This document shows, piece after piece, positions 10,476 through 57,306 of a DNA stretch of 64,000 bases (position 1 is its first letter; each line of letters starts with the position of its first letter). Source of the DNA: a virus; the IMG/VR virus record IMGVR_UViG_3300013314_000001, positions 1 through 64,000 of that record, one strand, 5' to 3'. The notes under the pieces were generated by a model. That model saw only the letters and a list, made by a program, of their open reading frames with translations. It was not told the origin of the DNA and did not search any database. Both the position numbers and the translations under genes were made by a program.

Positions 10476-11909
10476 TTGTCCCTTCCCCAATCTCCCTTAT
10501 ATTTCCCCGTGCAATTCGTGAAACACTACACAACGTTAGCTGCACCACAAACTCAGTCTACAAAACCTTTGGAATCGACTAAGGTAGGGGGGGATGGCAT
10601 ATTATTTGTACTTATGCTGGCTGCGGTTGCTGGCATATTTTTGTTTAAGGGTAAGAAAAGTAATCGTACTCATGATCACATTAATCCCTCAGAAATGGGA
10701 TCAGAAGTAGCACACGTAGAAAAAAACAAACCTCAGTCACATGACAGTGACACAAGGTTAATAACTAATGCCCAACACCCAACGTCCAATACCCAACCTC
10801 CAACACCCAACGACCAAGTAGGTCAACGCATTATTGAGGAGTTGGTCAGCACCAAACTCAGCACCCTATTAGCCGCTCCTTCTGGTGCGGGTAAGTCAGT
10901 CACTCAAGCTTACTGGCTGTCAAAACTTTATGAAAAATTCCCCGGTGCCGATGTCTATGTTATCGCCCGGAAAAACGACAGCTTTAATGGACTGCGGGAA
11001 CAGAGAAAGGTTTTCGTCTACGACACTGACAACCCCAAAGATGCGCTTCAGGCTTTGCAGACAGTCCATGATATTTTCAAAGTGCGATCGCAGTTTTCCG
11101 AAGACGAGCGATCGCAATTCGCAACTCAACCAGTGCGATTAATCTTGGCTGACTGGTACAGCATTCATAACAACCTAGTTAAGTCTCACGAGAAACTGTG
11201 GAAGTCAGAGATTCAAAGCAAGCTGGCGGATATCGTAACTGTAGCCAGAGAATTTAATGTGAGCTTGTTCGCCGATTCCCAGACTTTCAATCTTGCGTCG
11301 CTGGGATTGGCCGAAGATTCCAATATCCGCAATAACTTAAACATCATCAGCCAGGGGCTTATCAGCATTGATGAGGATGGCAATGAGCAGGGTGGATTTG
11401 AGGTTATCCAATCAATTATTAGAAATGCTTACGTTTTTCCTGGGGAAGAAGTGCGGCGGGTGATTAGCTTAGAAGTCGAAAAGTTAATCAAACTTTCTAA
11501 TGCCCAACGCACACCCATAATTTTATCAACGGCTGGGAAGCCCAAAGCAGGGTTACTCCCTAATTTGATGGAGTATAAGGGCAGAAATATTTTTAAGACA
11601 GATTCACCCATTCACCCCAAGACTGATTTAACTTCCCCTCTTGAAGGGGGGAAGTTGTGTGAGTTAACCGCATCATCTGTACTACCTGAGCCACTGCGTA
11701 CCATTTGGCGTGTAGCTCAAGAGAAAGATGACTGGTTGACTGCCCGTGATATTGCTAGAAAAGAATATGCCGTACTCAAGGGAATGAATACAGCAGCAGA
11801 AATTATTCAGTTTGTGCAGCAGCTTGAGAGAATAGAGCTAGTTGAGATTAGTTCTGAAGTTGGGCAAGCTATTAGGTTTCGGCAAGTTCAAAAAGTTAAA
11901 GGTGAGTAG
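10476..11909 (+). CDS. membrane-anchored P-loop NTPase
   Basis: Has an N-terminal TM segment (ILFVLMLAAVAGIFLF), Walker A LAAPSGAGKSVT, a Walker-B-like VRLILADW and a C-terminal wHTH-like tail. Start is uncertain (10476 or ATG 10614). Confidence 0.6.
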   Translation: MSLPQSPLYFPVQFVKHYTTLAAPQTQSTKPLESTKVGGDGILFVLMLAAVAGIFLFKGKKSNRTHDHINPSEMGSEVAHVEKNKPQSHDSDTRLITNAQHPTSNTQPPTPNDQVGQRIIEELVSTKLSTLLAAPSGAGKSVTQAYWLSKLYEKFPGADVYVIARKNDSFNGLREQRKVFVYDTDNPKDALQALQTVHDIFKVRSQFSEDERSQFATQPVRLILADWYSIHNNLVKSHEKLWKSEIQSKLADIVTVAREFNVSLFADSQTFNLASLGLAEDSNIRNNLNIISQGLISIDEDGNEQGGFEVIQSIIRNAYVFPGEEVRRVISLEVEKLIKLSNAQRTPIILSTAGKPKAGLLPNLMEYKGRNIFKTDSPIHPKTDLTSPLEGGKLCELTASSVLPEPLRTIWRVAQEKDDWLTARDIARKEYAVLKGMNTAAEIIQFVQQLERIELVEISSEVGQAIRFRQVQKVKGE

Positions 11910-11918
11910 GCGTTAGCC
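11908..11918 (-). promoter_or_regulatory. motif B copy 1 (GGCTAACGCCT on minus strand)
   Basis: Perfect AGGCGTTAGCC. On the minus strand it lies just after the bidirectional terminator at the distal end of the 17.7->11.9 kb block. It overlaps the TAG stop of the plus-strand gene 10476..11909. Confidence 0.85.
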
Positions 11919-11930
11919 TATAAAAAATAT

Positions 11931-11959
11931 CCCCCAAAGCGTGAGTGCTTGGGGGTTTT
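11931..11959. terminator. bidirectional rho-independent terminator
   Basis: CCCCCAAAG...CTTGGGGG stem flanked by an A-run upstream and a T-run downstream, between convergent genes. Confidence 0.8.
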
Positions 11960-11961
11960 GA

Positions 11962-12225
11962 TTATTGTTCTATGGGGTTGGGCTTTGTTCCTGGATGATA
12001 CTCCCACTCATGGTAAGAGCTACTTTGCCAATAGCCATCTTTAGCTAAAACTTGCTGCCCCACTTGTTCATATATTTCTGCTGGGCATCTGTCTTCTGGA
12101 TTGCTTTGGCGATCTACTTTTTCAGATAATCGCAAAGCATAATCAGACGGTTGTTCGCCATCGTTTGTTGAGAGATGGAACGTATCATGATAAGTTACAT
12201 AGTCTACATTTACTTGGTTTGTCAT
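11962..12225 (-). CDS. hypothetical protein
   Basis: 87-aa ORF, last gene of the minus block. Confidence 0.5.
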   Translation of the reverse strand: MTNQVNVDYVTYHDTFHLSTNDGEQPSDYALRLSEKVDRQSNPEDRCPAEIYEQVGQQVLAKDGYWQSSSYHEWEYHPGTKPNPIEQ

Positions 12226-12293
12226 TTTGTTTTTTGGCTGAATTGAATAAATTTTATCAAGACTAGTATTAGAGTTAGTATCAAAAAATGATG

Positions 12294-12662
12294 CTAACTA
12301 CGTTTATATAATTTAGAATCTGATTTCAAAATTTGTTTTTTTCTTTGTTGCTTTTTTATATCCTCTTCTTCATCTATAAATTTTTCTTCAACTCTAAAAC
12401 CTGACTCTTTAAGGAAAGCGGAAATAAAATCTTGAACTTCCCCTTTTCCTCGCAAAAACAGCAAGGGATTCTGCTTGTCTTCGTTTTTCAAAATATCTTC
12501 TAATTTAAGTTTGACTTTTTTCAACCGATAAGTTATAGCCTCCTTATCCCAATCTTCACTTGTTAGATTATCCAAACCAATAAAATCTTGGTCGAATAGA
12601 TTATTCGACTTTTTTATTTTTTCTGCGCTGTATGCTGTAAACTCGCCAAATACTATTTTCAT
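12294..12662 (-). CDS. hypothetical protein
   Basis: 122-aa Lys/Glu-rich ORF. Confidence 0.5.
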   Translation of the reverse strand: MKIVFGEFTAYSAEKIKKSNNLFDQDFIGLDNLTSEDWDKEAITYRLKKVKLKLEDILKNEDKQNPLLFLRGKGEVQDFISAFLKESGFRVEEKFIDEEEDIKKQQRKKQILKSDSKLYKRS

Positions 12663-12728
12663 AAACCCTCATCAGTACCAGCATTGAGCCATCTGGCAGA
12701 CTAACCAGGGGGTTAGTTTCGGATTGGT

Positions 12729-12926
12729 TTAGTTAATAGATAATCTCAAATTATTTTGAGAATCGACTACAAACTGACCATCAATTTTTACCTTATCCCA
12801 GTCTTGTTGCCAGAACTCTCCACCGCAGCCCATTCCGCCACAACTACCACCAATTCTTACGCATACATCGCAATAGTTTGGATGCTTTGCTTTTTGAACT
12901 AAATTCCAAAAGTTTGTTGATTGCAT
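12729..12926 (-). CDS. small Cys/Gly-rich protein
   Basis: Start refined to ATG 12926, preceded by GAAGGAG. Contains CDVCVRIGGSCGGMGCGG. Confidence 0.5.
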   Translation of the reverse strand: MQSTNFWNLVQKAKHPNYCDVCVRIGGSCGGMGCGGEFWQQDWDKVKIDGQFVVDSQNNLRLSIN

Positions 12927-12970
12927 AATCTTTTTCTCCTTCAATAAACAAAACAATTCACCAAGTTTTT

Positions 12971-12981
12971 AGGCGTTAGCC
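12971..12981 (-). promoter_or_regulatory. motif B copy 2
   Basis: Perfect 11-mer. Its internal TAA is the stop of ORF 12976..13989. It lies 45 nt upstream of the next start. Confidence 0.85.
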
Positions 12982-13989
12982 TATCTTCTTCAAAACAATA
13001 TCTACAACCTCAGTTACAGATAGTAGAGAAGGATTATTCCAAGAGCTACCGCCTACGGCTGCTCTGCCTCCCCACCCTTCAAATGCAGGGTTTTTATTTA
13101 CTTCTGCTGCTGTTAACGCTTCAAAAACTTTCTTGCTCGCGTAGTCTAATTTGTCTGCATTCGGATGAGCCGGGTTACTACCAAGTGTGTAGCGGATGCC
13201 ATCACGCTCTTTGCGCGGTTGCACTACCAAAGTCACGGGCGACAAATCATTTAAGTTTGCCACCTGGGGAATAGCCCGATAAAATGCGCGGGGATCAACA
13301 TAGCGTGTTACGTCTGAAAGCTGCGCGATCGCTACTCCCTTATATACGTCAATCCGCCCATCAGCCAACATTTGAATGTCAGCCTCTACTTGTTCCCAAT
13401 ACTCAGTAGCTTCTCCCTGTTCTCCTGGCCAGAGACACTCACCCTTCATTGCAGCAATTAACCATTCTGTGCCATTTTGGAAGGCAGCAGAATAAAATTC
13501 TTCACGCTGTTCATCCGTCCAATCATTTCTCTTAATTGGCAAACCTAATTGATTAGCTAAGTTGTTGCCTGTAGACTTCATTGCAGCTACCGCTTGCGCT
13601 GCAAAGTCTGCTAAATCAGACAAGTCTTCAGGTATGTAAAGGTAATCGCAATCGAATGCGATTGCCCTTAGCTTTCTAAAATTATCATCGGATATTAAAG
13701 CTTTTGGATCATAGCCATAACGCGGTTGATATTTACCCCAAAGAATCCAAGCTGCTGCTACGCAAGCGTCAGCATCAGTTTGAGTTGTTACTATGACAGC
13801 ATCATCTTTGATATCTTCATAGAACATAGAGTTAATTTCGTCCATCTGGATTTTGGAACCACCTGGGCGATGGTGGTCAAAATGTAAATCACCTGGCTTC
13901 TTTTCCCACTTGGGAACTGTGCCATCAAGCATGATAATTTGCTTGTCTGTGGGAAGTTGATCTATCTTGGTTGTGGTCAAAAACTGCAT
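12976..13989 (-). CDS. hypothetical protein (weak DHH/DHHA1-phosphoesterase-like motifs)
   Basis: 337 aa. HFDHHRPGG, TDADACVAAAW and C-terminal GWGGRAAVGGS loosely recall the DHH, DxD and GGGH motifs, but their order is atypical. Confidence 0.3.
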   Translation of the reverse strand: MQFLTTTKIDQLPTDKQIIMLDGTVPKWEKKPGDLHFDHHRPGGSKIQMDEINSMFYEDIKDDAVIVTTQTDADACVAAAWILWGKYQPRYGYDPKALISDDNFRKLRAIAFDCDYLYIPEDLSDLADFAAQAVAAMKSTGNNLANQLGLPIKRNDWTDEQREEFYSAAFQNGTEWLIAAMKGECLWPGEQGEATEYWEQVEADIQMLADGRIDVYKGVAIAQLSDVTRYVDPRAFYRAIPQVANLNDLSPVTLVVQPRKERDGIRYTLGSNPAHPNADKLDYASKKVFEALTAAEVNKNPAFEGWGGRAAVGGSSWNNPSLLSVTEVVDIVLKKIG

Positions 13990-14446: not shown

Positions 14447-14746
14447 TTAACCGCAATAACTCGAATTAACTGAACAGGAAGCCCAAGGTTCGCCGCTACC
14501 ACAATTGCAAGGGCGGGAATTAGCTTTATCATCTTCTATTTCCTGCAATCGAAGTGATAGATATTCATCTGTGTAACTTCCGTCATCCTGAAACCTGTCG
14601 GCATCAGGGATATAGTTATCTTGACCTTCTTCAACTAAATGGCAGTCGCAAGCAAAAGCACCGGAACCGCAAAAACATAAACCTTGTGTTCTCATTGTTT
14701 CTAGATTATACAGACGATCGGAAGAGGGGTATTCCAAACCCCTCAA
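14447..14746 (-). CDS. SEC-C-motif (CxCGSG) metal-binding protein
   Basis: Contains CFCGSGAFACDCH and CNCGSGEPWASC. The likely true start is ATG 14695 (MRTQGL), since the upstream part overlaps a hairpin. Confidence 0.5.
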   Translation of the reverse strand: MRGLEYPSSDRLYNLETMRTQGLCFCGSGAFACDCHLVEEGQDNYIPDADRFQDDGSYTDEYLSLRLQEIEDDKANSRPCNCGSGEPWASCSVNSSYCG

Positions 14747-14753
14747 TCTAATG

Positions 14754-14764
14754 AGGCGTTAGCC
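14754..14764 (-). promoter_or_regulatory. motif B copy 3
   Basis: Perfect 11-mer, 4 nt after the stop of ORF 14769..15317. Followed by the hairpin GAGGGGT..ACCCCTC and a TATAAT box. Confidence 0.85.
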
Positions 14765-14768
14765 TTCT

Positions 14769-15460: not shown

Positions 15461-15531
15461 TTACGTGAGGTATAGTGGTGTATTGCGATCGCCACGCCAG
15501 GAAAGCAAACGATCGCAATTTCAAATCTTTT

Positions 15532-15542
15532 AGGCGTTAGCC
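15532..15542 (-). promoter_or_regulatory. motif B copy 4
   Basis: Perfect 11-mer, 13 nt after the stop of ORF 15556..16356. Confidence 0.85.
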
Positions 15543-15555
15543 TTCTAATCAGATG

Positions 15556-16356: not shown

Positions 16357-16413
16357 ATTTCTAAGTAGCGAGTAAATTTGTACTAGAGCTAGATTAAATC
16401 TAGCTCACAATTT

Positions 16414-16722
16414 TTAGGCGTTAGCCTTTACCAAATCAGTTACTAAAACTGAATTTTCTGAATAGTTGCTTTCCCATTCATAACCATACTGATTGACTAA
16501 ATAGTAGCTCCAGTATGGGTGACGAATACACTCAGTTGAATGCACTGAGAAAACTTCAAAATTAGCTTTGATTCCTGAGATGTAATATACATTAGTCTTA
16601 TTAGAGCCAATGCCCGACTCACTAAATCTTACAGCTTGAAATTGCACAAACGCTGGAGTTCCTAAAACTTCTGCAAGTGGTTGCCCTTTGTATGTAACGT
16701 TTTCCAGAGTATTCATTTTCAC
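16414..16722 (-). CDS. hypothetical protein
   Basis: 102-aa ORF. Confidence 0.5.
   Translation of the reverse strand: MKMNTLENVTYKGQPLAEVLGTPAFVQFQAVRFSESGIGSNKTNVYYISGIKANFEVFSVHSTECIRHPYWSYYLVNQYGYEWESNYSENSVLVTDLVKANA
16416..16426 (-). promoter_or_regulatory. motif B copy 5
   Basis: Perfect 11-mer. It is read in frame as A-N-A-stop at the end of ORF 16414..16722 and is followed by the hairpin GAGCTAGATTTAATCTAGCTC. Confidence 0.85.
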
Positions 16723-16745
16723 CTTATATAGTTCAGGTTTTGTAA

Positions 16746-16754
16746 ACGTTAGCC
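16746..16754 (-). promoter_or_regulatory. motif B, degenerate copy
   Basis: ACGTTAGCC (9 of 11), just after the stop of ORF 16757..16987. Confidence 0.5.
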
Positions 16755-16756
16755 TC

Positions 16757-17702: not shown

Positions 17703-17739
17703 TGCTAATCTCAAACTCCTAATAAATCTCACAGACCCC

Positions 17740-17750
17740 AGGCGTTAGCC
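17740..17750 (-). promoter_or_regulatory. motif B copy 7 (head of minus-strand block)
   Basis: Perfect 11-mer in the divergent region, 38 nt upstream of ATG 17702. Confidence 0.85.
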
Positions 17751-17777
17751 TTCTTCAGCTATCTTAGTACTGACACT

Positions 17778-17795
17778 TATCAGCATATAACGATA
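17778..17795. promoter_or_regulatory. operator-like site O1 (TATCAGCATATAACGATA)
   Basis: The 13-nt core CAGCATATAACGA recurs inverted at 17835-17847 and directly at 30364-30376. Confidence 0.6.
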
Positions 17796-17834: not shown

Positions 17835-17848
17835 TCGTTATATGCTGA
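17835..17848. promoter_or_regulatory. operator-like site O2 (inverted copy)
   Basis: TCGTTATATGCTG is the exact reverse complement of the O1 core, 41 nt away. Confidence 0.6.
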
Positions 17849-17850
17849 AG

Positions 17851-17967
17851 AAAGGCAGAGGGCAGAGGGCAGAGGGCAGAAGGGAAGAGGTTATATAAGA
17901 CCTTAAGACTTCTGACACTATATTAAATCCATCCTTCTGCCTTCTGCCTTCTGCCCTCTGCCTTTCC
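17851..17967 (-). mobile_element. miniature hairpin element: inverted heptamer arrays (GGCAGAG/GGCAGAA)n without an ORF
   Basis: The left arm 17851-17890 and right arm 17933-17967 are reverse complements. The 42-nt loop contains GACACTATAT, matching (in reverse complement) ATATAGTGT next to the left arm of cassette 42966..43439. Confidence 0.65.
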
Positions 17968-23436: not shown

Positions 23437-23723
23437 TTATTCACCTTATCAAGTTCCGCTTCTGTCACCCAACCCCACTCACGCCACCATTCATCGTCTC
23501 TGTGGTAATAGTAAATCTGGTACTCACAGCCTCTAGTAACCCATGTACGCTGACCTTCGACTAAATCATAATCGTTAAGGTAACGAATAGATTTGATAAT
23601 AGTAGGAAGGTTGCAGTTTGGTACTACTACTACTTGATTGACTTTGTATTTGAACTGAATAGTTGACTCAATATCAACTATCGTATTTTCAACTTTCACG
23701 TTATTATCTCCAAAACAATTCAT
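23433..23723 (-). CDS. hypothetical protein
   Basis: 96-aa ORF. Its ATG lies 8 nt after motif B copy 8. Confidence 0.5.
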   Translation of the reverse strand: MNCFGDNNVKVENTIVDIESTIQFKYKVNQVVVVPNCNLPTIIKSIRYLNDYDLVEGQRTWVTRGCEYQIYYYHRDDEWWREWGWVTEAELDKVNK

Positions 23724-23730
23724 ACTTTTT

Positions 23731-23741
23731 AGGCGTTAGCC
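23731..23741 (-). promoter_or_regulatory. motif B copy 8
   Basis: Perfect 11-mer. Its internal TAA is the stop of ORF 23736..23930. Confidence 0.85.
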
Positions 23742-23930
23742 TCTACCAATTAATTTTCTAGTGTTCCGTGAATACTTCCTAAGAATAGTCCTGCGCTGCT
23801 TGTGGCAGAACTCGATAACAGAGCTATAGAAGAGATTGTCACCCTCCTCTAATAGTTTTCTGCATCGGTGTTCGTGACTGGCTAGGATGCGTAGAAAATC
23901 TATGTTATGGCATCCAGTGTTATGTTTCAC
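23736..23930 (-). CDS. small basic protein (RKYSRNT family, paralogue of 24297..24506)
   Basis: The C-terminus RRTILRKYSRNTRKLIGRG compares with KERKLIIRKYSRNTLRIIK. Confidence 0.5.
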   Translation of the reverse strand: MKHNTGCHNIDFLRILASHEHRCRKLLEEGDNLFYSSVIEFCHKQRRTILRKYSRNTRKLIGRG

Positions 23931-24662: not shown

Positions 24663-24681
24663 TAAAAAGTTCACCAACACT

Positions 24682-24692
24682 AGGCGTTAGCC
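24682..24692 (-). promoter_or_regulatory. motif B copy 9
   Basis: Perfect 11-mer between the helicase stop and the terminator. Confidence 0.85.
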
Positions 24693-24770
24693 TGAATTAG
24701 ACATGGTATAATTTCCTTAGAATTATTGAGTGTGTAGTCCGTGAGATTGCAACCTTACGGACTATGTTTT

Positions 24771-26390: not shown

Positions 26391-26996
26391 TTAAACAAGT
26401 GCAGGTTTCAAACCTAGTAACTCTATGCGATTAGCTACTACAAAAAGCTTTTGCTTTTGTTGATAGTCCTGTTCCCACTGACTGATGGATAGCCTACCGT
26501 CAACCCCTAAGAACTGACCTTTAACACCCCAATCCTGAAGGACTTCAGCCTGTCTATCCCAACAATCAACCTTGAAGAAGTAGGGTTCATTCTCCCTACG
26601 GTTGAGAGCTAAACTGGTAGTAGAAACCCTTTGACCCCCCTGCAAGAACTTGTGGTCTGGTTCAATTGTCTGACGACCGACAAGGGAAATCATATTGATT
26701 TGTTCCCCCATATAGCCTAAGATTAAATGATTGACCTCAAGCCATACTACTTTACCAATCCATAACTTACCTATTGTTAGGATGAGTTCACCTTGCTGAA
26801 GTGCTAGTAGGTTTCTAGCATTGTTTTTGTAGGCGTGAAGGTAAATGATTTGCTCACCTACTTGACCACGCCTACCGTCAAGGATAAGGCAACACTCAGC
26901 AATAACTAAGTCTGACTCGTCAACGTAAGCAGCACTGATGAACGCTAGAGAGAGGATGCAGATATTCATAGAGATTAGAATTAACATCACCCTCAT
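26391..26996 (-). CDS. ssb: single-stranded DNA-binding protein with two OB-fold-like halves
   Basis: The C-terminal half MISLVGRQTIEPDHKFLQGGQRVSTTSLALNRRENEPYFFKVDCWDRQAEVLQDWGVKGQFLGVDGRLSISQWE fits the bacterial SSB pattern. The N-terminal half repeats a similar pattern. Start is uncertain (26996 or ATG 26969). Confidence 0.65.
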   Translation of the reverse strand: MRVMLILISMNICILSLAFISAAYVDESDLVIAECCLILDGRRGQVGEQIIYLHAYKNNARNLLALQQGELILTIGKLWIGKVVWLEVNHLILGYMGEQINMISLVGRQTIEPDHKFLQGGQRVSTTSLALNRRENEPYFFKVDCWDRQAEVLQDWGVKGQFLGVDGRLSISQWEQDYQQKQKLFVVANRIELLGLKPALV

Positions 26997-26997
26997 T

Positions 26998-27008
26998 AGG
27001 CGTTAGCC
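26998..27008 (-). promoter_or_regulatory. motif B copy 10
   Basis: Perfect 11-mer. Its internal TAA is the stop of the ArdC-like gene, and the motif ends in TAATG overlapping the SSB ORF start. Confidence 0.85.
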
Positions 27009-27911
27009 CTCAGTCTCCTCGTACTCTTCTTTAATCCCCGCATTCTCAAGCAGGTAGCGACACGCCTTTTGAGCGAGAGACGCTGCTTTCATAAACGCTT
27101 TGTTATCATCTTTAAGAACTGATATCCAGTTATTCAGATAGTTAGCATGGTTCTGCAACTCGTAGTCCATGCCCAAAGCATTGGTCACAAACACCGAACC
27201 CAACTCAGCAACCAACTCCTCAAACGCATACTTGGGAGTTCCAAACCTGCCATGTTCCCGTGCTAACCGTTTCTCATGCCCAGTCCAGTGAACGTGTTCA
27301 TGTGCCAGGGTTGAGTAATACTCGTTAGCACTGGTGAAGTTTTCAAACTCTGGCATAAGAATAGTATCCTCACTTGGGATATAACAAGGTTGGTCGCCCA
27401 TGTGCTTGAGTTGCGATCGCTGGGCTTTGATAAACTCCTCAATGGTAATGATGCGCTTATCTGGGTTCATACCCTGAGCAACTTTCTTTTTAGCAAGCCA
27501 GTCAGCGATCGTAATCTTTCCGTTGGAATCATCAAACTGGTGGATGCTGAAAAGGTTGTACCACTTGGCAGTACGGTAAAACTCCTTCTCGCCAGTATCC
27601 TTGTTTTCCTTGCAGCCGGTGCCACCCCAATATAACCAAACACTCTTAGAGCCTCGTGTCACTTGCCAACCAACCTCACTAGCTTGTTTAAATGTGAGAA
27701 AGTAAGGATGCTCCCAATCATTAATCAACATCTCAATGGAACAAAGCAATGGGTTAACGCCCCGGTAGACATGACCAGTAATCGCATTCTGACAAGGGTT
27801 GCCATGCCATGACTTAACCCAAGGTTTCTTTCCTTGCTCCATTAAAGTTATCAACTTGGTAGTGAGTAGTTCATACTTGTCAATAGCTGGGTGTTTAACT
27901 TTAGTAGCCAT
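27003..27911 (-). CDS. ArdC-like protein (N-terminal ssDNA-binding domain plus zincin HExxH domain)
   Basis: ITGHVYRGVNPLLC...YFLTFKQASEVGWQVTRGSKS matches the ArdC/DUF1738 N-domain. LAHEHVHWTGH...YAFEELVAELGSVF matches the metalloprotease domain. Confidence 0.8.
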   Translation of the reverse strand: MATKVKHPAIDKYELLTTKLITLMEQGKKPWVKSWHGNPCQNAITGHVYRGVNPLLCSIEMLINDWEHPYFLTFKQASEVGWQVTRGSKSVWLYWGGTGCKENKDTGEKEFYRTAKWYNLFSIHQFDDSNGKITIADWLAKKKVAQGMNPDKRIITIEEFIKAQRSQLKHMGDQPCYIPSEDTILMPEFENFTSANEYYSTLAHEHVHWTGHEKRLAREHGRFGTPKYAFEELVAELGSVFVTNALGMDYELQNHANYLNNWISVLKDDNKAFMKAASLAQKACRYLLENAGIKEEYEETEG

Positions 27912-27941
27912 GAGAGTTAGTCCGAAAACTTCATAGCTACT

Positions 27942-27952
27942 AGGCGTTAGCC
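27942..27952 (-). promoter_or_regulatory. motif B copy 11
   Basis: Perfect 11-mer. Its internal TAA is the stop of ORF 27947..28366, 31 nt upstream of ATG 27911. Confidence 0.85.
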
Positions 27953-28366
27953 TACTTCATAAAAAGTACATTTCTCAGCTATCAAATCTAAATCATGCTC
28001 AGTTGTTATCTCCTCATAATTTAATTCAACAGAAGGATGATTGCAATAAAATAATAGTTGTGGTTCTGCTTCTGGATTTTGTGGAACATCCCATGAATGC
28101 TCATGATATTTACACTCTAAACAAGTTAATGTAACATCTGTTGATTTCATGAATCGATTGGCTGCTTCTTTGTAAATATATCCAGCAGTAACATCTAACC
28201 ACCTACCAGTATAACCACCGTAAAATTGTACGCTTGTTTTGCAAAGCTTAGATTCTAAATCAAAATCTCCTTGTTCATCAAAAATGTTGCACTCTTTAAC
28301 TGCTTGACATAATTCTTCATCACCCCAAGTTTTAAGTAAATCTGCTAAATCATCAATAATAGTCAT
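27947..28366 (-). CDS. hypothetical protein
   Basis: 139-aa ORF. Confidence 0.5.
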   Translation of the reverse strand: MTIIDDLADLLKTWGDEELCQAVKECNIFDEQGDFDLESKLCKTSVQFYGGYTGRWLDVTAGYIYKEAANRFMKSTDVTLTCLECKYHEHSWDVPQNPEAEPQLLFYCNHPSVELNYEEITTEHDLDLIAEKCTFYEVG

Positions 28367-28755: not shown

Positions 28756-28785
28756 TATTTAAGTAATACGTCTATCACTCAAATT

Positions 28786-28796
28786 AAGCGTTAGCT
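28786..28796 (-). promoter_or_regulatory. motif B, degenerate copy
   Basis: AAGCGTTAGCT (9 of 11), immediately after the stop of ORF 28797..29441. Confidence 0.5.
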
Positions 28797-29441
28797 TTAT
28801 GCAATTTCATAAGAAGCACAAAGTCCAGGATTAAAAAGCTGTCCGTCAAGACATAGTTTTTTACCAGATGCAACATCTAAATAATCTATTAATTCTTGAG
28901 TGCGCCTTGGGTGACGAAACCAGCCCGTACCATCAACTGACTCAGCACCCGAATTATGGCAAACCCAAAGCCAGCGCAAAGTATTGATTCTTGCTATGTG
29001 AACACGAGGAAAACCAGCACAAAAATATTTAATATTGCTACGCTTCCAATCAGTAGAACCTCCAACAAAAACTACATCAGCCTTATCAGGAACATCATTC
29101 AAGGTATGACCATTTTGAACGGCAAAAGCACAAGTAAAGCCAAACTCATACTTGATTATTGGATACCATTCTTTCCATAATTTAGAAGTAGTTGCAGCAT
29201 CTCCGACAGCATCAGGGACAACAACCCAACGAGGCTGATATCCTAAGGATTTAATTTTTGTTAACAAAGTAATAAAAGGATTTTGCTGAAACTCTAGCCC
29301 TTTACGCCACAAAGCGTAAACCCCATTATCAGCAGCGAAATCACAGTGAGCATTCCACCAACCACCAGGGCTAATAAGCATGGCTAAATTGCTATAGCCA
29401 AGTTTAATAACCATACTGTTATTCCCAGGCATGACTATCAT
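28797..29441 (-). CDS. hypothetical protein, possibly DpdA/TGT-like DNA-guanine transglycosylase
   Basis: 214 aa. FAADNGVYALW, VVVPDAVGD, VVFVGGSTDWK and AESVDGTGWFR recall, from memory, conserved blocks of phage DpdA-type transglycosylases. This is unverified. Confidence 0.3.
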   Translation of the reverse strand: MIVMPGNNSMVIKLGYSNLAMLISPGGWWNAHCDFAADNGVYALWRKGLEFQQNPFITLLTKIKSLGYQPRWVVVPDAVGDAATTSKLWKEWYPIIKYEFGFTCAFAVQNGHTLNDVPDKADVVFVGGSTDWKRSNIKYFCAGFPRVHIARINTLRWLWVCHNSGAESVDGTGWFRHPRRTQELIDYLDVASGKKLCLDGQLFNPGLCASYEIA

Positions 29442-30379: not shown

Positions 30380-30422
30380 CTTGGAAAAAGCAAGAGGAAA
30401 TATTAATTTCCTCAAAGTTATT

Positions 30423-30433
30423 AGGCGTTAGCC
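30423..30433 (-). promoter_or_regulatory. motif B copy 13
   Basis: Perfect 11-mer abutting the TAG stop of ORF 30433..30825. Confidence 0.85.
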
Positions 30434-30825
30434 TACTTCTTATTCATTTCTAGTTTTGTTTTAAGCTCTTGAATTGAGTATCCTTGAAGCCAAAAAGATT
30501 CTGTGCTAATGCCTTCTAACAGTTCTGAGCTTACTAATTGATTTAAACTAGAAAGCCAATCACGATAAATGATTGAATTTTTAGTTTCTGGATGTCTAGG
30601 GCTAGACCCTCCTTTCATGCCATAAATGTTTAAACCCTGATTAGTCCAGGACTCTAATATTTTTTCCATCTCAGCAACTACCATTTCTGGGGTTTTGCCT
30701 TGGTCGTAAGCAGTACTAGCATCATATTGTATTTCTATAGTACTTAGCTTGTCTCCATGTTTTAGCTCACAAATCTCAGAAATTTTATCACTCCAATCTC
30801 GCCAACTCATTTGATAGTTATTCAT
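30433..30825 (-). CDS. hypothetical protein
   Basis: 130-aa ORF. Confidence 0.5.
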   Translation of the reverse strand: MNNYQMSWRDWSDKISEICELKHGDKLSTIEIQYDASTAYDQGKTPEMVVAEMEKILESWTNQGLNIYGMKGGSSPRHPETKNSIIYRDWLSSLNQLVSSELLEGISTESFWLQGYSIQELKTKLEMNKK

Positions 30826-30854
30826 CTTTTAACACAATAGCATTCTCTTATTTT

Positions 30855-30865
30855 AGGCGTTAGCC
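30855..30865 (-). promoter_or_regulatory. motif B copy 14
   Basis: Perfect 11-mer. Its internal TAA is the stop of the 1429-aa ORF. Confidence 0.85.
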
Positions 30866-35244: not shown

Positions 35245-37563
35245 CTAGAAATTATCTAGAACCAACACCTCATTAAAGCCATTCTTGGTAGTTACTTGTC
35301 CTTCAAACCAAACATCTTTTAGCAATGTCGGTGAATCATTAACTGACAAGTAGCCTAAGTACTTACCATCCTCATCCTGTGCAAACAGATACCCATTAGT
35401 ATGAACAACCAAACGTAGGGGCATAACCTCACCCTGCCACTGATACCCAGGATAATCGCTGTGATTAGTCCCTGCTGCTGTCTCACAAACTTGGAGTTTA
35501 TTAATTCTCAATGTCTGCAAGCGTTCACAGATTTCCTCAAGCCCTACCAAAAAACAAATGAATGTGTTACTCTGGTCTATGCTATTGCTATGGTGCTTGG
35601 CGTACCAAAACGCGCCTACTGCATCAACGCGACTCTTCTTAGATGTGCAACCATCTAGAAGGGTTTTCCACTTTTTAACTACTGCCTTACGTTTCTCAAC
35701 GTAGGTTGTCACTGTGCTGCTATAAACAAACTCACCTTTTTGTACAGAGTCTATTTCTTCTTTTGAAACAGTTCTGATTGCCGCAGTGTACTCAGCACAC
35801 CGCAGTTTGGCTTTTTTCAGCCAATTGGCGTGAGGCTGGGGGAACAGTGGTTTAAACACACTGAACTTTGACTTACGCAGATTTGGCGCAACCCAGAGTT
35901 TATTCATCTCACGCACTAACCGAGAGATAGTATCACCGCGACCGTCATCTGTTACCAACTGAGTTAGATAACATTCCTTGTTCTTATTCTCGTTAAGCCA
36001 AGCGATATCTCCTTTCAGTTGTTTGGATATTTCGTTAAGCAGTTTTTTATCTGGTGGTGTCGCACCCTTGAGAGAGTCAACAGCCGCTTGCAACTGGGGA
36101 ACAAGCTTGTTAACTAAATCCTCTCTACCCATTGCCCAAGCCTTAGCAATTAACCAAGTAATAAGCCCAGTGTCATTAGCCATTGACTTAGTTGCTATTT
36201 CGCCAAGCGTTCCAACTACGGGCTGTTTCTTAGGTTTGATGTCGCCTTGATTCATGGGAGATTCACCAAAGTTCTTGACTGCGATCGCAACGTTAGGTAA
36301 CTTGTAAGTAGGTAGCCATTGAAGGTGGTCCCCATCAAAATCTCGACCTAATTTAAGTGCAGTAGCTTGATTAACTACTAACACGCCTTCGCAATCTTCC
36401 CAAGTTTCAAGGTGAACATTGCGCCAAACCTTGATGTCGTATTTCCAACGGCAAGGGTAAGGGAAAACTATTACCTCTTCTCCCTCTGGTAGCCCTGGAA
36501 TGTAGATGCAATCGTTAGGTAACGACTCATCGGGCATCACCATGCTGGAATTGAACTTGACCGAGCCAGCAGTTGCTAGAGTTATCCAACGACCACGGAA
36601 CATTTCAGTTACCTTGTCAACTACCCAAGGATGACTGGTTAGCTGACCATGAATATCAGCACCTACAAGCCGCGCTAGTGTAGACTTGTATTCATTCTCC
36701 TCTATTTCAGTATCGTAATCCTCACTACCCAGTAGACACTCTGCCAGTTTCCTCTGGTTAGTGAGTGTTTCATTTATGCCATTAGCAGCCTTGATGGTTG
36801 CTGGCAAGATATCTTTCTCAACAGCATCCCAAGGAAGATACTGAAGGACTGAGTAACTGAGACTGCAACGTCGCCAGTCTAAGCGCTTGGTAGCGTGCTT
36901 AATCTCAGGGGAGGCAAACACTAAACCAAGTGTTAATTCTGGTAAGTCATACTCACCGGGAGCTACCTTGTTGCCTTTGAAGCAACTCACTGGTAGCACT
37001 AAGTCATAGTCAGAGTTTTCAACCTTCTCACTGTAAGCAATAGTGCCTTTAGCAATCCAAGCTGGAAACTGGCTAGCAGCACGGAATTGGAACGGATTGT
37101 TTACCGATTCGGTTAATAAATATGAAAGTCGAAAACCTGTTTTTCCGTGGCAATCCCCTACATCGTACTCAGTATCATCATCAGCAACTACCAATAACTT
37201 AACTGCGATCGTAATTATCTCCTTACACTCAGTCGTTAAGTTACTACCATAGCTGATTGCATTGGCATTGCTTCCAAAGAACCGAGTGAAATAATCCCCG
37301 CCTCCCTTGGCAAATAAAACCCTACCATGCTTTCTAGCACCAGACGCACCGACTAAGTGGTAATCTTCAAAACCAGTGTCAAGGATTTTTGCGATCGCAG
37401 CATAGTTAGGTTTCTTCTCTGCTAGCATTGAGGAGACATCCCCAACTGCAAACTTAACATCTGGGTAAAGATGCCCTAGTAAGGTATTGCGATAGCTAAT
37501 CTCACAACCTTCAGGCAACCAAACCTTATCTACCAAATCAAAAATGGGAAGTATTAAACTCAC
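35245..37563 (-). CDS. two-barrel (double-psi beta-barrel) polymerase-like protein, cellular-RdRP / YonO-like
   Basis: GTG start preceded by AGGAG. EEVIVFPYPCRWKYDIKVW...VLVVNQATALKLGRDFDGDHLQW (DFDGD at nt 36328-36342) matches the catalytic barrel of RNAP beta-prime (NADFDGD) and RdRPs (NPCLHPGDVRV...DLDGD). PFQFRAASQFPAWIAKGTIAY (nt 37033-37095) matches the first RdRP barrel (FQIR..G.KG). Confidence 0.6.
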   Translation of the reverse strand: MSLILPIFDLVDKVWLPEGCEISYRNTLLGHLYPDVKFAVGDVSSMLAEKKPNYAAIAKILDTGFEDYHLVGASGARKHGRVLFAKGGGDYFTRFFGSNANAISYGSNLTTECKEIITIAVKLLVVADDDTEYDVGDCHGKTGFRLSYLLTESVNNPFQFRAASQFPAWIAKGTIAYSEKVENSDYDLVLPVSCFKGNKVAPGEYDLPELTLGLVFASPEIKHATKRLDWRRCSLSYSVLQYLPWDAVEKDILPATIKAANGINETLTNQRKLAECLLGSEDYDTEIEENEYKSTLARLVGADIHGQLTSHPWVVDKVTEMFRGRWITLATAGSVKFNSSMVMPDESLPNDCIYIPGLPEGEEVIVFPYPCRWKYDIKVWRNVHLETWEDCEGVLVVNQATALKLGRDFDGDHLQWLPTYKLPNVAIAVKNFGESPMNQGDIKPKKQPVVGTLGEIATKSMANDTGLITWLIAKAWAMGREDLVNKLVPQLQAAVDSLKGATPPDKKLLNEISKQLKGDIAWLNENKNKECYLTQLVTDDGRGDTISRLVREMNKLWVAPNLRKSKFSVFKPLFPQPHANWLKKAKLRCAEYTAAIRTVSKEEIDSVQKGEFVYSSTVTTYVEKRKAVVKKWKTLLDGCTSKKSRVDAVGAFWYAKHHSNSIDQSNTFICFLVGLEEICERLQTLRINKLQVCETAAGTNHSDYPGYQWQGEVMPLRLVVHTNGYLFAQDEDGKYLGYLSVNDSPTLLKDVWFEGQVTTKNGFNEVLVLDNF

Positions 37564-37626: not shown

Positions 37627-37659
37627 CAGCGCGAAGCGTTTAAAAGAAAAATATTTCTT
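37627..37659 (-). promoter_or_regulatory. motif A copy 1 (promoter-like), upstream of the polymerase-like gene
   Basis: Minus strand AAGAAATATTTTTCTTTTAAACGCTTCGCGCTG, 63 nt before GTG 37563. A stem-loop lies in the leader. Confidence 0.75.
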
Positions 37660-38324: not shown

Positions 38325-38381
38325 AAAGACTGTTCCACCCCAAGCGTATTGGAGTAGAACAGTCTTATATTCACAATCGTT

Positions 38382-38392
38382 AGGCGTTAGCC
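38382..38392 (-). promoter_or_regulatory. motif B copy 15
   Basis: Perfect 11-mer. Its internal TAA is the stop of ORF 38387..38704. Confidence 0.85.
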
Positions 38393-38704
38393 TTTCAAGT
38401 ACTTGTCAGCAGCATCTAGAAATAAAGTGATGTCAGGAAAAATCTCAGCACGTTCTTTAAGATAAGGTAATGCCCTATCATTCAAAGAAGTTGGTATCCA
38501 TGCAAACTCTAGTTTCCCATCAATTCGTTCTTCTAACAAAGGTTCATTGCAAGGTGACAAACAAAACAAATACGCAACGTTTGCTAGGTCTACTACTGAA
38601 TCTCTTACTTGTTCGTAGTCTCTGCAATTCACTTCAAATGTAGGATTGACAGCACAAGGAAGAATCTGACTACCGGAATAGTATTTACAGGTATAACAAA
38701 GCAT
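38387..38704 (-). CDS. hypothetical Cys-rich protein (CAVNP motif)
   Basis: MLCYTCKYYSGSQILPCAVNPTFEVNCRDYE shares a motif with ORF 5239..5586. Confidence 0.5.
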   Translation of the reverse strand: MLCYTCKYYSGSQILPCAVNPTFEVNCRDYEQVRDSVVDLANVAYLFCLSPCNEPLLEERIDGKLEFAWIPTSLNDRALPYLKERAEIFPDITLFLDAADKYLKG

Positions 38705-41046: not shown

Positions 41047-41139
41047 CGTTAAGCCTATCCTTTTCTTGCTTGCTGTAATCGCTTGGTGTTGAAGTCATCT
41101 TTATGAATCGACATAGTTTTATTAGACATCACACACTCT

Positions 41140-41150
41140 AGGCGTTAGCC
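41140..41150 (-). promoter_or_regulatory. motif B copy 16 (head of the 41.1->21.9 kb minus block)
   Basis: Perfect 11-mer in the divergent intergenic region. Confidence 0.85.
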
Positions 41151-41184
41151 TTCTTCCGTTATGATAAAATAGTATAAGTTGAAA

Positions 41185-50584: not shown

Positions 50585-51142
50585 ATGGGAAGTGTAACAT
50601 TAACTGGAATTTCTACACCATTTAGCACATCATATGGTACGTCTCAAAAACCTATTAATCAAATGACTGATGAAGAGTTTGCAGCTTATGCATCAGGGCA
50701 ACAGACAAATCAAAATAGAACTAATCAATTAAATACTATTGCTGGAAGTGGTGTTAGTGCTGTTCAATTGCAAGCTCAACAACAAGCTAAAGACTTAGCA
50801 CAGACTCAACTAGATAATTCTGACAAACAAATGGCTCTCTCAAGTAAGTATCGGTCAGCAGAGTCAGAACAGAATAATCAAATAACTCAACAGCAAAACA
50901 CACAAAAATATGGTATTCAAACTGGGTTAAATACTCAAGAAAATACGCAGCAAACTGCTATGCAGAATAATCAAAATACACAGCAAACTGCTATGCAGAA
51001 TAATCAGAATACACAGCAAACTAATATGTTTAATCTTCAAAATCAAGCCAAGCAACAAGATACTCAAAGCGCTCGTAATGCTGCTAGTAGTTTATATTTT
51101 GGTCGAGCTAGGAATGGTAGTGGATTCCAAGGGCGGGGTTAA
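50585..51142 (+). CDS. Q/N-rich protein with tandem 11-aa repeat
   Basis: NTQQTAMQNNQ x2.5, encoded by the 33-bp tandem repeat. Confidence 0.5.
   Translation: MGSVTLTGISTPFSTSYGTSQKPINQMTDEEFAAYASGQQTNQNRTNQLNTIAGSGVSAVQLQAQQQAKDLAQTQLDNSDKQMALSSKYRSAESEQNNQITQQQNTQKYGIQTGLNTQENTQQTAMQNNQNTQQTAMQNNQNTQQTNMFNLQNQAKQQDTQSARNAASSLYFGRARNGSGFQGRG
50942..51028 (+). repeat. 33-bp tandem repeat, about 2.6 copies
   Basis: AATACGCAGCAAACTGCTATGCAGAATAATCAA (50942-50974), a near-identical copy at 50975-51007 and a partial copy at 51008-51028. Confidence 0.85.
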
Positions 51143-54159: not shown

Positions 54160-54275
54160 GACTTCTTGTAGTTAATCTCTACTCATTCTTAATAGACCGT
54201 AGTTTCAATTCCATTCTACTAAGTTTGCTAAACTTAGTATCTTTGCTAGTAGCTGTAAATACAAAAATAAAATAT

Positions 54276-54286
54276 GAGCGTTAGCC
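54276..54286 (-). promoter_or_regulatory. motif B, degenerate copy at the distal end of the accessory island
   Basis: GAGCGTTAGCC (10 of 11). On the minus strand it directly follows the terminator hairpin ACCCCAG..CTGGGGT plus a T-rich run. Confidence 0.55.
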
Positions 54287-54295
54287 ACCAAAAGA

Positions 54296-55499: not shown

Positions 55500-55530
55500 C
55501 ACGCGAAGCGTTTAAAGAAAAATATTTCTT
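55500..55530 (-). promoter_or_regulatory. motif A copy 4
   Basis: Minus strand AAGAAATATTTTTCTTTAAACGCTTCGCGTG, 46 nt before ATG 55453. Confidence 0.75.
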
Positions 55531-56054: not shown

Positions 56055-56088
56055 GATTGAATCCTTGAGATGATTGACACCACATCAA

Positions 56089-56116
56089 CAGCGCGAAGCG
56101 TTTAAAGAAAAATATT
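56089..56116 (-). promoter_or_regulatory. motif A copy 5
   Basis: Minus strand AATATTTTTCTTTAAACGCTTCGCGCTG, 34 nt before ATG 56054. Confidence 0.75.
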
Positions 56117-56146
56117 CTCCCTGGCGTTGTACCAGAGAGAAGCGCA

Positions 56147-56632
56147 TCATAAGCCTTTGTATTTAACCCAAGACTTCCAAACATTATCAGTCGGGACATC
56201 TTTGCGAATGGCATAATTAACACAATTGCCAGTGCCACCACTAGAGCCATCATGTAATGCAAGAAGGCGATCGCAATGGTCAACCATCCAAGCATTACGA
56301 ACCATCATCTTAGATGCAGAGTAGCCACCATCGGAAACAATCACAATCTCAGATGCAACAGAAAGAATGTAATTGAAACGCTCACGGTCAGGTAATTGCC
56401 AGCGAGACTCTTGACCCTTGAAAGGAACAGCAGCAATCAAAGGGATATGCAATTTAATAGCAGCCAAAGCAATCGCAGTATCCCAACCCAATGCCATGCC
56501 AGAGATGACCTTTGTAGGATTGCGAGATGATAAATAAGCAGCAGCCAAGTCAGTCAAACGCTCACGCACTGTATTAGAATAACCGCCCAATTTCTCAGGA
56601 CGATGACCAGTACCAGCAATTATTAAAGTCAT
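56147..56632 (-). CDS. SLOG-superfamily protein (DUF1273/YpsA-like)
   Basis: LIIAGTGHRPEKLGGY...VISGMALGWDTAIALAA...IAAVPFKGQESRW...VRNAWMVDHCDRLLALHDG matches the DUF1273 pattern. The overlapping ORF 56047..56295 is judged spurious. Confidence 0.6.
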   Translation of the reverse strand: MTLIIAGTGHRPEKLGGYSNTVRERLTDLAAAYLSSRNPTKVISGMALGWDTAIALAAIKLHIPLIAAVPFKGQESRWQLPDRERFNYILSVASEIVIVSDGGYSASKMMVRNAWMVDHCDRLLALHDGSSGGTGNCVNYAIRKDVPTDNVWKSWVKYKGL

Positions 56633-56662
56633 AATGAACCCTCATTAATTACACCTCCTTAT

Positions 56663-56690
56663 CAGCGCGAAGCGTTTAAAGAAAAATATT
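56663..56690 (-). promoter_or_regulatory. motif A copy 6
   Basis: Identical 28-nt core, 30 nt before ATG 56632. Its upstream flank is also shared with copy 7. Confidence 0.75.
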
Positions 56691-56721
56691 CCCTGAACTA
56701 TTTAGCTCAAGGAAAAACTTT

Positions 56722-57048
56722 CTACACTTGCTCACTTGCAATTAACCAGTTAACCGCACTCACAATAATATCTGCATGACAGGCGAGGGGCTTGCACCAA
56801 CACACAAGCCTAATGCTCTCACCAGCTTTTACTCTACGAGCGATCGCAAACAACTCCGCACGAGCCTTAGAGCTTTCGTTCTTAATCTCAGCCCATAGCC
56901 AAATACGATAAGCAGCAACTACAGTTTCTCTGTCTGCTTCACTTTTCATAGCAAATGGATTGCCTAGTGGAAAAGGTCTACCCACATAAACATCAGACCA
57001 GCCTAGCTCACTACTTAAGTTCCGTTTGCTAACAACTTTGATATTCAT
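56722..57048 (-). CDS. DUF4326-family protein
   Basis: VYVGRPFPLGNPF...VAAYRIWLW...IRLVCWCKPLACHADII matches the DUF4326 pattern. Confidence 0.65.
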   Translation of the reverse strand: MNIKVVSKRNLSSELGWSDVYVGRPFPLGNPFAMKSEADRETVVAAYRIWLWAEIKNESSKARAELFAIARRVKAGESIRLVCWCKPLACHADIIVSAVNWLIASEQV

Positions 57049-57079
57049 AATTGAACTCCTACTGATTACACTTCCCCTT

Positions 57080-57107
57080 CAGCGCGAAGCGTTTAAAGAA
57101 AAATATT
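57080..57107 (-). promoter_or_regulatory. motif A copy 7
   Basis: Identical 28-nt core, 31 nt before ATG 57048. Confidence 0.75.
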
Positions 57108-57295
57108 CACGCTTGACTAATTAGCTCAAGCAAAAACTCACCACCCATATTTACCCATGCGTAGTTCTATTTCTGAGTTGTACTCATCATCATAAAAAGC
57201 ATCCATGAATATTTGACATAGTGAATTGAGTAGCAGTAGTCTCATGGTGGTCAATTCGTAGTTGAGGATTCACGCCAATTGGCATCACATTATTC

Positions 57296-57306
57296 AGGCG
57301 TTAGCC
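57296..57306 (-). promoter_or_regulatory. motif B copy 18 (head of the accessory island)
   Basis: Perfect 11-mer in the divergent region next to plus-strand ORF 57360. Confidence 0.85.

Follow-up and report, generated by a model that had tools for sequence, protein, structure and literature searches.

Promoters that are read as DNA hairpins have been described for bacteriophage N4, in which supercoiling extrudes a hairpin on the template strand, the single-stranded DNA-binding protein (SSB) melts the hairpin on the non-template strand, and a stretch of four bases measures, like a ruler, the distance to the transcription start, 8 nt beyond the hairpin (PMC4496689). Here, we analyze motif B, a repeated 11-mer with a small inverted repeat, in a 64,000-nt stretch of viral DNA (positions 1 to 64,000 of IMG/VR record IMGVR_UViG_3300013314_000001; hereafter the window). 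Our results indicate that motif B is probably a middle-class promoter for the phage's own YonO-like RNA polymerase (RNAP). To our knowledge, hairpin promoters had so far been described only for the N4 enzyme, which is unrelated. Similar to the N4 promoters P1-P3, motif B contains a short inverted repeat whose stem positions are free to vary as long as they remain paired, a loop on the template strand that belongs to the mini-hairpin class (N4: GCGGAGC/GCGAAGC) and has a closing C:G pair and a G...A pair, and an A/T-rich spacer of fixed length (8-9 nt, compared with about 8 nt in N4); moreover, the window phage encodes an SSB. However, the N4 enzyme is a virion-packaged protein with a T7-like right-hand fold that serves three promoters, whereas the candidate in the window is a 772-aa two-barrel protein with 16-17 sites. 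In addition, the loop of motif B comprises 4 nt (GTTA) instead of 3 nt, its stem measures 4-6 bp, and a dependence on extrusion and SSB is hypothetical in this case. Because the only polymerase in the window is of the two-barrel type, motif B is a functional analogue of the N4 promoters and not a member of their family.

Closer to the window protein in structure are the small single-subunit two-barrel RNAPs of other phages. For the enzymes gp64 and gp96 of Thermus phage P23-45, promoters have been mapped by ONT-cappable-seq and chromatin immunoprecipitation sequencing (ChIP-seq), with each enzyme having its own conserved motif just upstream of the mapped starts (PMC10770324). These motifs, one AT-rich and the other GC-rich, differ from motif B, which is known from sequence alone, and the passages considered here mention no covariation of a hairpin. 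YonO, a member of the same superfamily, is a single-chain homologue of multisubunit RNAPs that is related to cellular RNA-dependent RNA polymerases (RdRPs); it transcribes a defined class of genes of the Bacillus prophage SPbeta from a promoter whose sequence was left undetermined (PMC5467207). Only one start site is known for YonO, and the enzyme drives late genes, whereas motif B avoids the structural gene blocks.

Two further groups of repeated elements invite comparison. The class II and class III promoters of the T7 group are conserved, strictly oriented and polymerase-specific elements, present about 15 times per genome at gene boundaries, that diverge together with their polymerase. Motif B resembles them in being repeated about 15 times, oriented, packed at gene boundaries and diverging with the polymerase, but the T7-group promoters are recognized as a duplex from -17 to +6, have no selected inverted repeat and are served by an unrelated polymerase family. 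The promoter early stem-loop (PeSL) repeats at gene boundaries of T4-type phages, in turn, reportedly mark sites at which related phages have gained or lost genes (Arbiol et al. 2010). Motif B, likewise a promoter-type repeat at boundaries, also coincides with gene gain and loss. However, PeSLs combine host sigma-70 early promoters with a separate stem-loop, whereas motif B is of the phage-polymerase type, with exchange being only a by-product.

Anatomy and distribution of motif B

The 11-mer (AGGCGTTAGCC in plus-strand reading, GGCTAACGCCT on the minus strand) occurs in 15 perfect copies, at exactly the coordinates given in a first-pass annotation of the window, versus 0.01 copies expected from dinucleotide-preserving shuffles. 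All of them lie on the minus strand, as had been stated, and no copy with exactly one mismatch exists in the window. The three degenerate copies that had also been listed are present, with two mismatches each (16744, 28786 and 54276), although the first lies at 16744 and not at 16746, and they are not equivalent to one another. Motif B is indeed absent from the plus-strand blocks, which encode the terminase, a portal-like protein and a tail lysin, and present at the heads of all three minus-strand blocks (17740, 41140 and 57296). We found no relevant literature containing the motif B string.

In minus-strand reading, the full element consists of the inverted repeat AGGC-TAAC-GCCT, which is sometimes extended to 5-6 bp, followed by 8 nt and then TGA. 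The spacer is A/T-rich, often with AAAA adjoining the stem, and the TGA stands exactly 9-11 nt past the 11-mer in 13 of the 15 copies; one copy has AGA, one a TGA shifted by 2 nt, and that at 11908 a TAA. This conserved TGA was overlooked in the first-pass annotation, as were the covariation of the inverted repeat and the phage RNAP gene at 35245-37563. Coding does not explain it, because the three block-head copies, which have no upstream open reading frame (ORF), still keep the TGA; given that, in addition, six ORFs already stop inside the motif, a role of the TGA as the stop codon of upstream ORFs was rejected. Transcription would probably start at the G or A of the TGA, 8 nt past the repeat. 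Downstream of five copies there is a hairpin that begins exactly at the GA of the TGA, and such a hairpin would resemble the 5'-terminal stabilizing stem-loop of a transcript starting at this GA. A co-oriented ORF lies downstream of every copy except that at 11908, and the genes downstream of motif B are minus-strand replication and recombination genes. The element would drive replication, recombination and accessory genes on the minus strand, which behave as a middle class. A middle-class promoter for a phage polymerase had been listed among several alternatives, and it is the reading that we favor, but the objection raised against it, the variable distance between the motif and the next start codon, fails, because the fixed geometry is that between the motif and the TGA, which leaves the length of the leader free.

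Six ORFs, those that end at 12976, 23736, 27003, 27947, 30860 and 38387, do take their stop codon from the TAA within the motif, and ORF 16414 terminates in Ala-Asn-Ala-stop within motif B, both as originally described. Since six out of 15 is about the rate expected for one reading frame in three, we regard this supply of stop codons as incidental, a by-product of tight gene packing and not a selected property. Both the stop-codon overlap and the cassette breakpoints described below would follow from promoters that are packed against the ends of upstream genes.

All copies of the extended element read in the minus-strand direction. At the block heads, perfect copies occupy 57285..57307 (block 57048-54246, with the TGA in register, in a divergent gap with about 55 nt upstream), 41129..41151 (the long block 41046-21901, with TGATG after the spacer) and 17729..17751 (block 17732-11962). 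Within the blocks, the copy at 38371..38393 is perfect, has its TGA in register and supplies with its loop TAA the stop of ORF 38387-38704. The copy at 30844..30866, in which AGA replaces TGA, lies upstream of a 130-aa gene (30433-30825); its loop TAA stops a 1429-aa ORF, and it is one of two copies that bracket a cassette. Further perfect copies are located at 30412..30434 (with a hairpin from the GA of the TGA, upstream of gene 29442-30287), at 27931..27953 (upstream of the ArdC-like gene 27003-27911), at 26987..27009 (upstream of the SSB-like gene 26391-26996, with a TGATG overlapping a possible start codon), at 24671..24693 (after the UvrD-like helicase gene and followed by a terminator-like hairpin) and at 23720..23742 (upstream of gene 23433-23723); those preceding the ArdC-like and SSB-like genes are syntenic in the related locus L001. 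Perfect copies are also found at 16405..16427 (with a hairpin starting at GA), 15521..15543, 14743..14765 (ahead of gene 14447-14746 and again with a hairpin from the GA) and 12958..12982 (ahead of gene 12729-12956 and with its TGA offset by 2 nt). The perfect 11-mer at 11897..11919 lacks the TGA, lies past the terminator that ends the minus-strand block and reads antisense into the plus-strand gene 10476-11909. Among the degenerate copies, that at 28775..28797, upstream of gene 28363-28755, is a variant with a compensated double change (AAGC-TAAC-GCTT) and a TGA in register, and a breakpoint of synteny with L001 falls exactly here. The copy at 16733..16755, upstream of gene 16414-16722, is a weaker variant (GGCTAACGTTT) with two mismatches and a TGA in register, and that at 54265..54287 (GGCTAACGCTC), with two mismatches and no TGA, is doubtful.

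The two-barrel RNA polymerase and the motifs that accompany it

The proposed reader of motif B is encoded on the minus strand at 35245..37563. Its gene product, a protein of 772 aa with a DFDGD motif, is the only large ORF product of the window that bears the DxDGD signature of a metal-binding loop, and in its sequence GRDFDGDHLQW the residues D408, D410, G411 and D412 are invariant in 23 homologues. A search of PDB sequences returned nothing significant, and the identity of the protein came from fold comparison. An AlphaFold (AF2) model based on the homologue alignment (mean predicted local distance difference test score, pLDDT, of 86.7) yielded the cellular RdRPs RDR2 and QDE-1 as top matches in Foldseek (E 1e-17 to 1e-14); also retrieved were the two-barrel RNAPs of the P23-45 group of phages (8f72, 8f5m and 8h2m; gp64 and gp96) and the crAss-like gp66 (6vr4), and then beta-prime subunits of multisubunit RNAPs. 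The matches to RDR2, QDE-1 and the phage RNAPs had a probability of 1.00. Based on these matches, the protein, with its double-psi beta-barrel fold, is a predicted YonO/QDE-1-like single-subunit two-barrel RNAP. One of its homologues carries the Pfam domain PF05183. A tblastn search of 50,697 phage records gave only marginal matches (E 0.05 or worse) to Lactococcus and Streptomyces phage genes, some of them annotated as RdRP, and Pfam and PHROG scans of the large ORFs revealed no T7-like polymerase of the N4 virion RNAP type.

Using homology to the 772-aa polymerase as the sole criterion, we gathered 69 loci, each covering about 10 kb per side of the homologue. Their common architecture is CGC, N10-11 and TGR, often followed by a T-rich stretch, a Shine-Dalgarno (SD) sequence and ATG. 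A comparison with related genomes had been suggested at the outset, and it bears out the element: motif B is conserved in relatives, where its orientation tracks that of the genes. In L001, L004-L008 and L066, whose polymerases are 46-77% identical to that of the window, GGCTAACGCC lies on the gene strand in syntenic places, with five copies in L001 (77%), six in L066 (58%) and six to eight in each of L004-L008 (46-50%) within 22 kb. More distant loci retain the architecture with an altered loop or stem: GGGAC-TAAC-GTCCC in L069, GCC-TAAC-GGC and CAC-TAAC-GTG in L068, GGC-TCGC-GCC in L067, GGC-TATC-GCC in L014 (11 copies), L020 and L025, GC-TAGC-GC in L021, and C-TACC-G in L015, L046 and L047; GCTATCGC, GCTAGCGC and GCTACCGC are found among L014, L020, L021, L025, L046 and L047, and GC-TTC-GC (GCTTCGC) in about 20 Microcoleus loci. 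The motif type is congruent with the neighbor-joining tree of the polymerases. Within Microcoleus, a single host genus, there are two motif types that each track their own polymerase clade, and a reader encoded by the element is therefore favored over one encoded by the host. The top k-mers in the Microcoleus loci, ATCGCCTTT and AATTCCTTG, are collagen-like coding repeats and were discarded.

The association was also approached from the side of the motif, by scanning 2.9 million viral contigs (IMG/VR) for AGGCTAACGCCT-N8-9-TGA. This reverse scan returned scattered single matches, and among the 80 stretches listed, more than one match occurred only in five polymerase-bearing contigs, in which the motif lies on both strands and always in the orientation of the flanking genes.

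Locus L014, from Spirulina sp. CS-785/01, is a chromosomal element (9285-12532) with a gene for a response-regulator receiver domain upstream of the RNAP homologue. Eleven GGCTATCGCC-N9-TGATG-T-rich-GGAG-ATG units precede a row of small upstream genes, which suggests a signal-controlled island and not a lytic phage module.

Many copies of motif B adjoin the stop codon of the preceding gene or overlap with it, and one copy (11908) stands at the tail of a block, past its last gene, as would be expected of a termination or pause signal of the phage polymerase at gene ends. We consider such a function the most improbable of the alternatives. The three block-head copies have nothing upstream to terminate, and in L014, L046 and other loci canonical terminators, each a hairpin with a T-run, precede the motif instead of replacing it; in L014 and L046, they lie immediately 5' of it, resulting in a terminator-then-promoter order. 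Moreover, the conserved TGA, followed in L014 by an SD-ATG, points to a start signal. An intrinsic terminator, with a stem of at least 5 bp and a T-run, was rejected as a candidate, given a stem of 4 bp and A-rich sequence after it; a reverse-strand reading gives weak scanner matches only.

Alternatively, motif B might be read by the host RNAP together with the SigF-like sigma factor of the phage (44488..45138, plus strand), which comprises regions 2 and 3 only and lacks region 4, with the YonO-like enzyme serving other genes. The sigma gene is conserved alongside the motif in the window clade, and in L004-L008, L066 and L069 a motif B copy precedes the polymerase gene, as if this gene were switched on by another enzyme. 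However, motif B has neither -35 and -10 elements at a spacing of 16-18 bp nor an extended -10 hexamer with a conserved A(-11) and T(-7), the factor is devoid of region 4, and covariation in a hairpin is foreign to sigma promoters. A scan for the sigma-70 consensus showed no enrichment (41 found versus 44 expected). Furthermore, a hidden Markov model search detected sigma homologues only in the window and L001-L008 and in none of the 56 other polymerase loci, even at E = 1; dozens of polymerase loci thus carry the motif family with no sigma factor within 10 kb. Conversely, the 43 IMG/VR loci that have a sigma homologue and no polymerase within 10 kb contain no repeated element of motif B architecture, whereas GCTAACGC occurs four or five times in the five sigma loci that also have a polymerase. 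The motif B family is independent of the phage sigma factor. Its recognition by a sigma-directed host enzyme appears very unlikely, and the factor more likely serves the late plus-strand genes.

The inverted repeat and its template-strand loop

The 4-bp inverted repeat AGGC/GCCT pointed out in the first-pass annotation is real, and its covariation shows that it is under selection. Across 67 distinct sites from 14 loci, the covariation score reached 0.271, compared with 0.118 in shuffled sets (0 of 500 of which attained the observed value) and a maximum of 0.141 in slid controls. The four inner stem pairs are kept through compensatory changes: pair 11-18 is GC in 63 and AU in four sites and never unpaired, while the counts are GC47/CG7/AU4/UA3 for pair 10-19 and AU37/GC8/GU5/CG4 for pair 9-20. 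Compensated variants are found at 28786 in the window as well as in L069 and L068.

On the template strand, the core sequences GCGTTAGC (the window), GCGATAGC, GCGCTAGC, GCGGTAGC and GCGAAGC all fit GCGNNAGC/GCGNAGC. This "mini-hairpin DNA" is hyperstable owing to two G-C pairs and a sheared G-A pair; a GTTA loop is tolerated in this class, and the N4 mini-vRNAP binds the mini-hairpin GCGGAGC/GCGAAGC in single-stranded promoters (PMC13037366). By analogy with the N4 virion RNAP promoters, motif B would be recognized as an extruded template-strand hairpin, with the loop and stem conferring specificity and the spacer serving as a ruler to the start site.

An inverted repeat that covaries could also form in RNA, and an AGGC-UAAC-GCCU hairpin might serve as a processing or cleavage site or be bound by an RNA-binding protein, in which case 5' ends near the TGA would arise from cleavage of a polycistronic RNA. 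Most copies of motif B are situated inside co-oriented operons and would be transcribed, and the downstream hairpins starting at the conserved GA are as compatible with a processed 5' end as with a primary one. However, copies at block heads have only 5-55 nt upstream of them in divergent gaps, with scant room for a separate promoter. The space available, with gene calls being approximate, amounts to 5 nt in L046, 18 nt in L069, 25 nt in L020, 36-44 nt in L021 and 55 nt at 57296 in the window, and a transcribed RNA signal in such tight gaps would need a promoter inside the neighboring gene. In addition, neither UAAC nor UUC belongs to a stable class of RNA loops, whereas the loops in the complementary DNA strand, GTTA, GATA, GCTA, GGTA and GAA, all fit the G...A mini-hairpin rule. 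No Rfam family matches in the window, and the motif tracks the polymerase gene and not a nuclease. Taken together, a signal acting at the RNA level is unlikely.

Beyond the window, it is tempting to speculate that a whole lineage of small two-barrel YonO/QDE-1-like polymerases, present in phages, prophages and genomic islands of filamentous cyanobacteria, reads extruded template-strand mini-hairpins (GCGNNAGC/GCGNAGC), with a fixed ruler to the start, in a manner convergent with the unrelated virion polymerase of N4. We put this plausible idea forward tentatively. In this scenario, the loop and stem (TAAC, TATC, TAGC, TACC or TTC) would set orthogonal specificities of the different clades, and it would become clear how a sigma-less minimal relative of cellular RNAP locates its promoters and opens them.

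Several observations weigh against a promoter read by the phage polymerase, or against its N4-like recognition. The stem has only 4 bp, with nearest-neighbor energies of -3.2 and -3.1 kcal/mol that are nearly equal for the two strands, and the wobble counts (5 G-T versus 4 A-C) do not distinguish the pairing strand, so that it is the loop rule that assigns the hairpin to the template strand. We infer promoter function and the start site from sequence features, and likewise recognition by the 772-aa polymerase alone. The polymerase gene of the window is preceded by a different element, class A, and not by motif B, although it is downstream of motif B in some relatives. Moreover, L002 and L003, with a polymerase of 50% identity, show no motif B in the 14 kb covered, and a sigma or other factor may lie beyond the flanks covered in the comparison. 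In SPbeta, the start site of P_YonO falls within the segment that the published primers delimit (L070, minus strand, about 30550-30365), and this segment contains neither GCGNAGC nor GCGNNAGC, a result that supports neither side. Finally, the copy at 11908 is antisense to a plus-strand gene and has no TGA; it may be inactive or an antisense promoter.

Antisense copies of motif B at the 3' ends of convergent genes are also present in L004 (3948), L005 (4413), L007 (4464) and L008 (3961). Their TGA is kept, and all four contigs share them; they might function as antisense promoters, or simply reflect conservation of the coding sequence.

If the proposed function of motif B is true, the cyanobacterial branch of YonO-like polymerases would have its first promoter consensus. 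Confirmation of the hairpin mechanism would reveal a second independent invention of hairpin promoters, shed light on promoter opening by a sigma-less relative of cellular RNAP and supply compact orthogonal transcription parts for cyanobacteria. The window and its relatives offer a testable consensus, with a 772-aa enzyme, an element of about 22 nt and natural specificity variants, as well as a specific hypothesis on the mechanism, in which the mini-hairpin of the template strand is what the enzyme recognizes. For annotation purposes, motif B would define the middle-gene regulon of uncultured cyanophage-like contigs of 55-80 kb.

Cassette junctions, class A elements and genome context

The first-pass annotation had also proposed that motif B marks cassette junctions, and breakpoints of synteny between the window and L001, the relative with 77% polymerase identity, do coincide with motif copies, albeit in a secondary role. 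The copies at 30855 and 30423 correspond to a single copy in L001 (17137) and bracket the 130-aa gene, which is absent from L001. Similarly, the 214-aa gene 28797-29441 is absent from L001, with homology resuming exactly at the 28786 copy, and further breaks in homology lie at 27956 and 27013. The repeated promoters thus double as junctions of gene gain and loss, as a by-product of their position.

These breakpoints and the bracketed gene, together with the tyrosine recombinase encoded at 42005-42925, could also be taken to indicate that motif B is itself a replication or recombination signal, such as a priming or nicking site for a primase or nuclease, or a cassette-exchange site akin to integron attC or the PeSLs of T4. 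Mini-hairpin DNA is indeed known at priming sites (G4-type origins and ssiA). However, on either strand the copies point the same way as the genes, whose start codons lie shortly downstream, and in more than 60 loci the motif accompanies an enzyme of transcription. Furthermore, breakpoints at promoters are to be expected anyway, as promoters lie at gene boundaries. A primary function in replication or recombination is therefore highly improbable. The integron-like version of this idea was rejected: the recombinase is a generic Xer-like phage integrase that scores 66 bits with the integron-integrase model (cutoff 265), and the 12-nt palindrome lacks the architecture of attC sites (57-141 bp).

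The class A element lies directly upstream of the RNAP gene at 37630..37654 on the minus strand, where it reads AATATTTTTCTTTAAACGCTTCGCG, with CGCGAAGCG on the template strand. Further copies, associated with minus-strand genes, are found at 38300-38324, 38739-38763, 55502-55526, 56092-56116, 56666-56690 and 57083-57107, bringing the number to seven. Class A elements consist of a variable terminator-like hairpin, AATATTTTTCTTTAAACGCTTCGCG, about 12 nt and a TGTAAT-like box, and their template strand carries the canonical mini-hairpin CGCGAAGCG. They precede the RNAP gene and small, early-looking genes, and one stands ahead of the RNAP gene in L001, too. In relatives, the corresponding position ahead of the RNAP gene is occupied by CC-TTC-GG or CAC-TTC-GTG.

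Between a class A element and the RNAP gene region lies an HNH endonuclease gene (37668-38174, minus strand), which is probably a mobile insertion; L001 lacks a counterpart here and has an RNase H gene instead. The 1429-aa protein encoded at 30860-35149 on the minus strand is rich in Q, N, P and S and gave no Pfam, PHROG or phage-database match. In the relatives examined, a giant protein (855-1967 aa) is likewise encoded shortly after the RNAP gene or in its vicinity.

The window represents a (pro)phage whose host is a HIP1-rich cyanobacterium. The sequence contains 35 copies of the HIP1 palindrome GCGATCGC, compared with 0.22 expected, a density that points to a HIP1-rich filamentous cyanobacterial host and agrees with the homologues from Rivularia, Microcoleus and Coleofasciculus. 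The window has no close relative among cultured phages: neither a near-identity DNA search nor tblastn of the 1429-aa protein gave a match in the 50,697 phage records. Genes for a tyrosine integrase, an SSB, a UvrD-like helicase, ArdC-like and Gam-like proteins and the SigF-like sigma factor are encoded in the window.

Several smaller repeats were also observed. Inverted arrays of the heptamers GGCAGA(G/A) and CCTTCTG at 17854-17890 and 17933-17964 flank a short AT-rich spacer upstream of the plus-strand gene 17972, and arrays of the same heptamers at 42967-42998 and 43406-43439 flank a gene of the 23S_rRNA_IVP family (43055-43405), an arrangement reminiscent of a small cassette insertion bounded by heptamer arrays. 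There are three exact copies of the 14-mer TCGTTATATGCTGA, at 17780-17793 (minus strand), 17835-17848 (plus strand) and 30363-30376 (minus strand); two copies are divergent in the intergenic region at 17.8 kb and the third lies past the motif B copy and hairpin at 30423. This 14-mer may serve as an operator or as part of a promoter of the host type. Finally, plus-strand ORFs contain two tandem repeats, one at 41567-41656 with 4.3 copies of a palindromic 21-nt unit (AGTCTCATTGATGAGACT) and one at 50940-51022 with 2.5 copies of a 33-nt unit.

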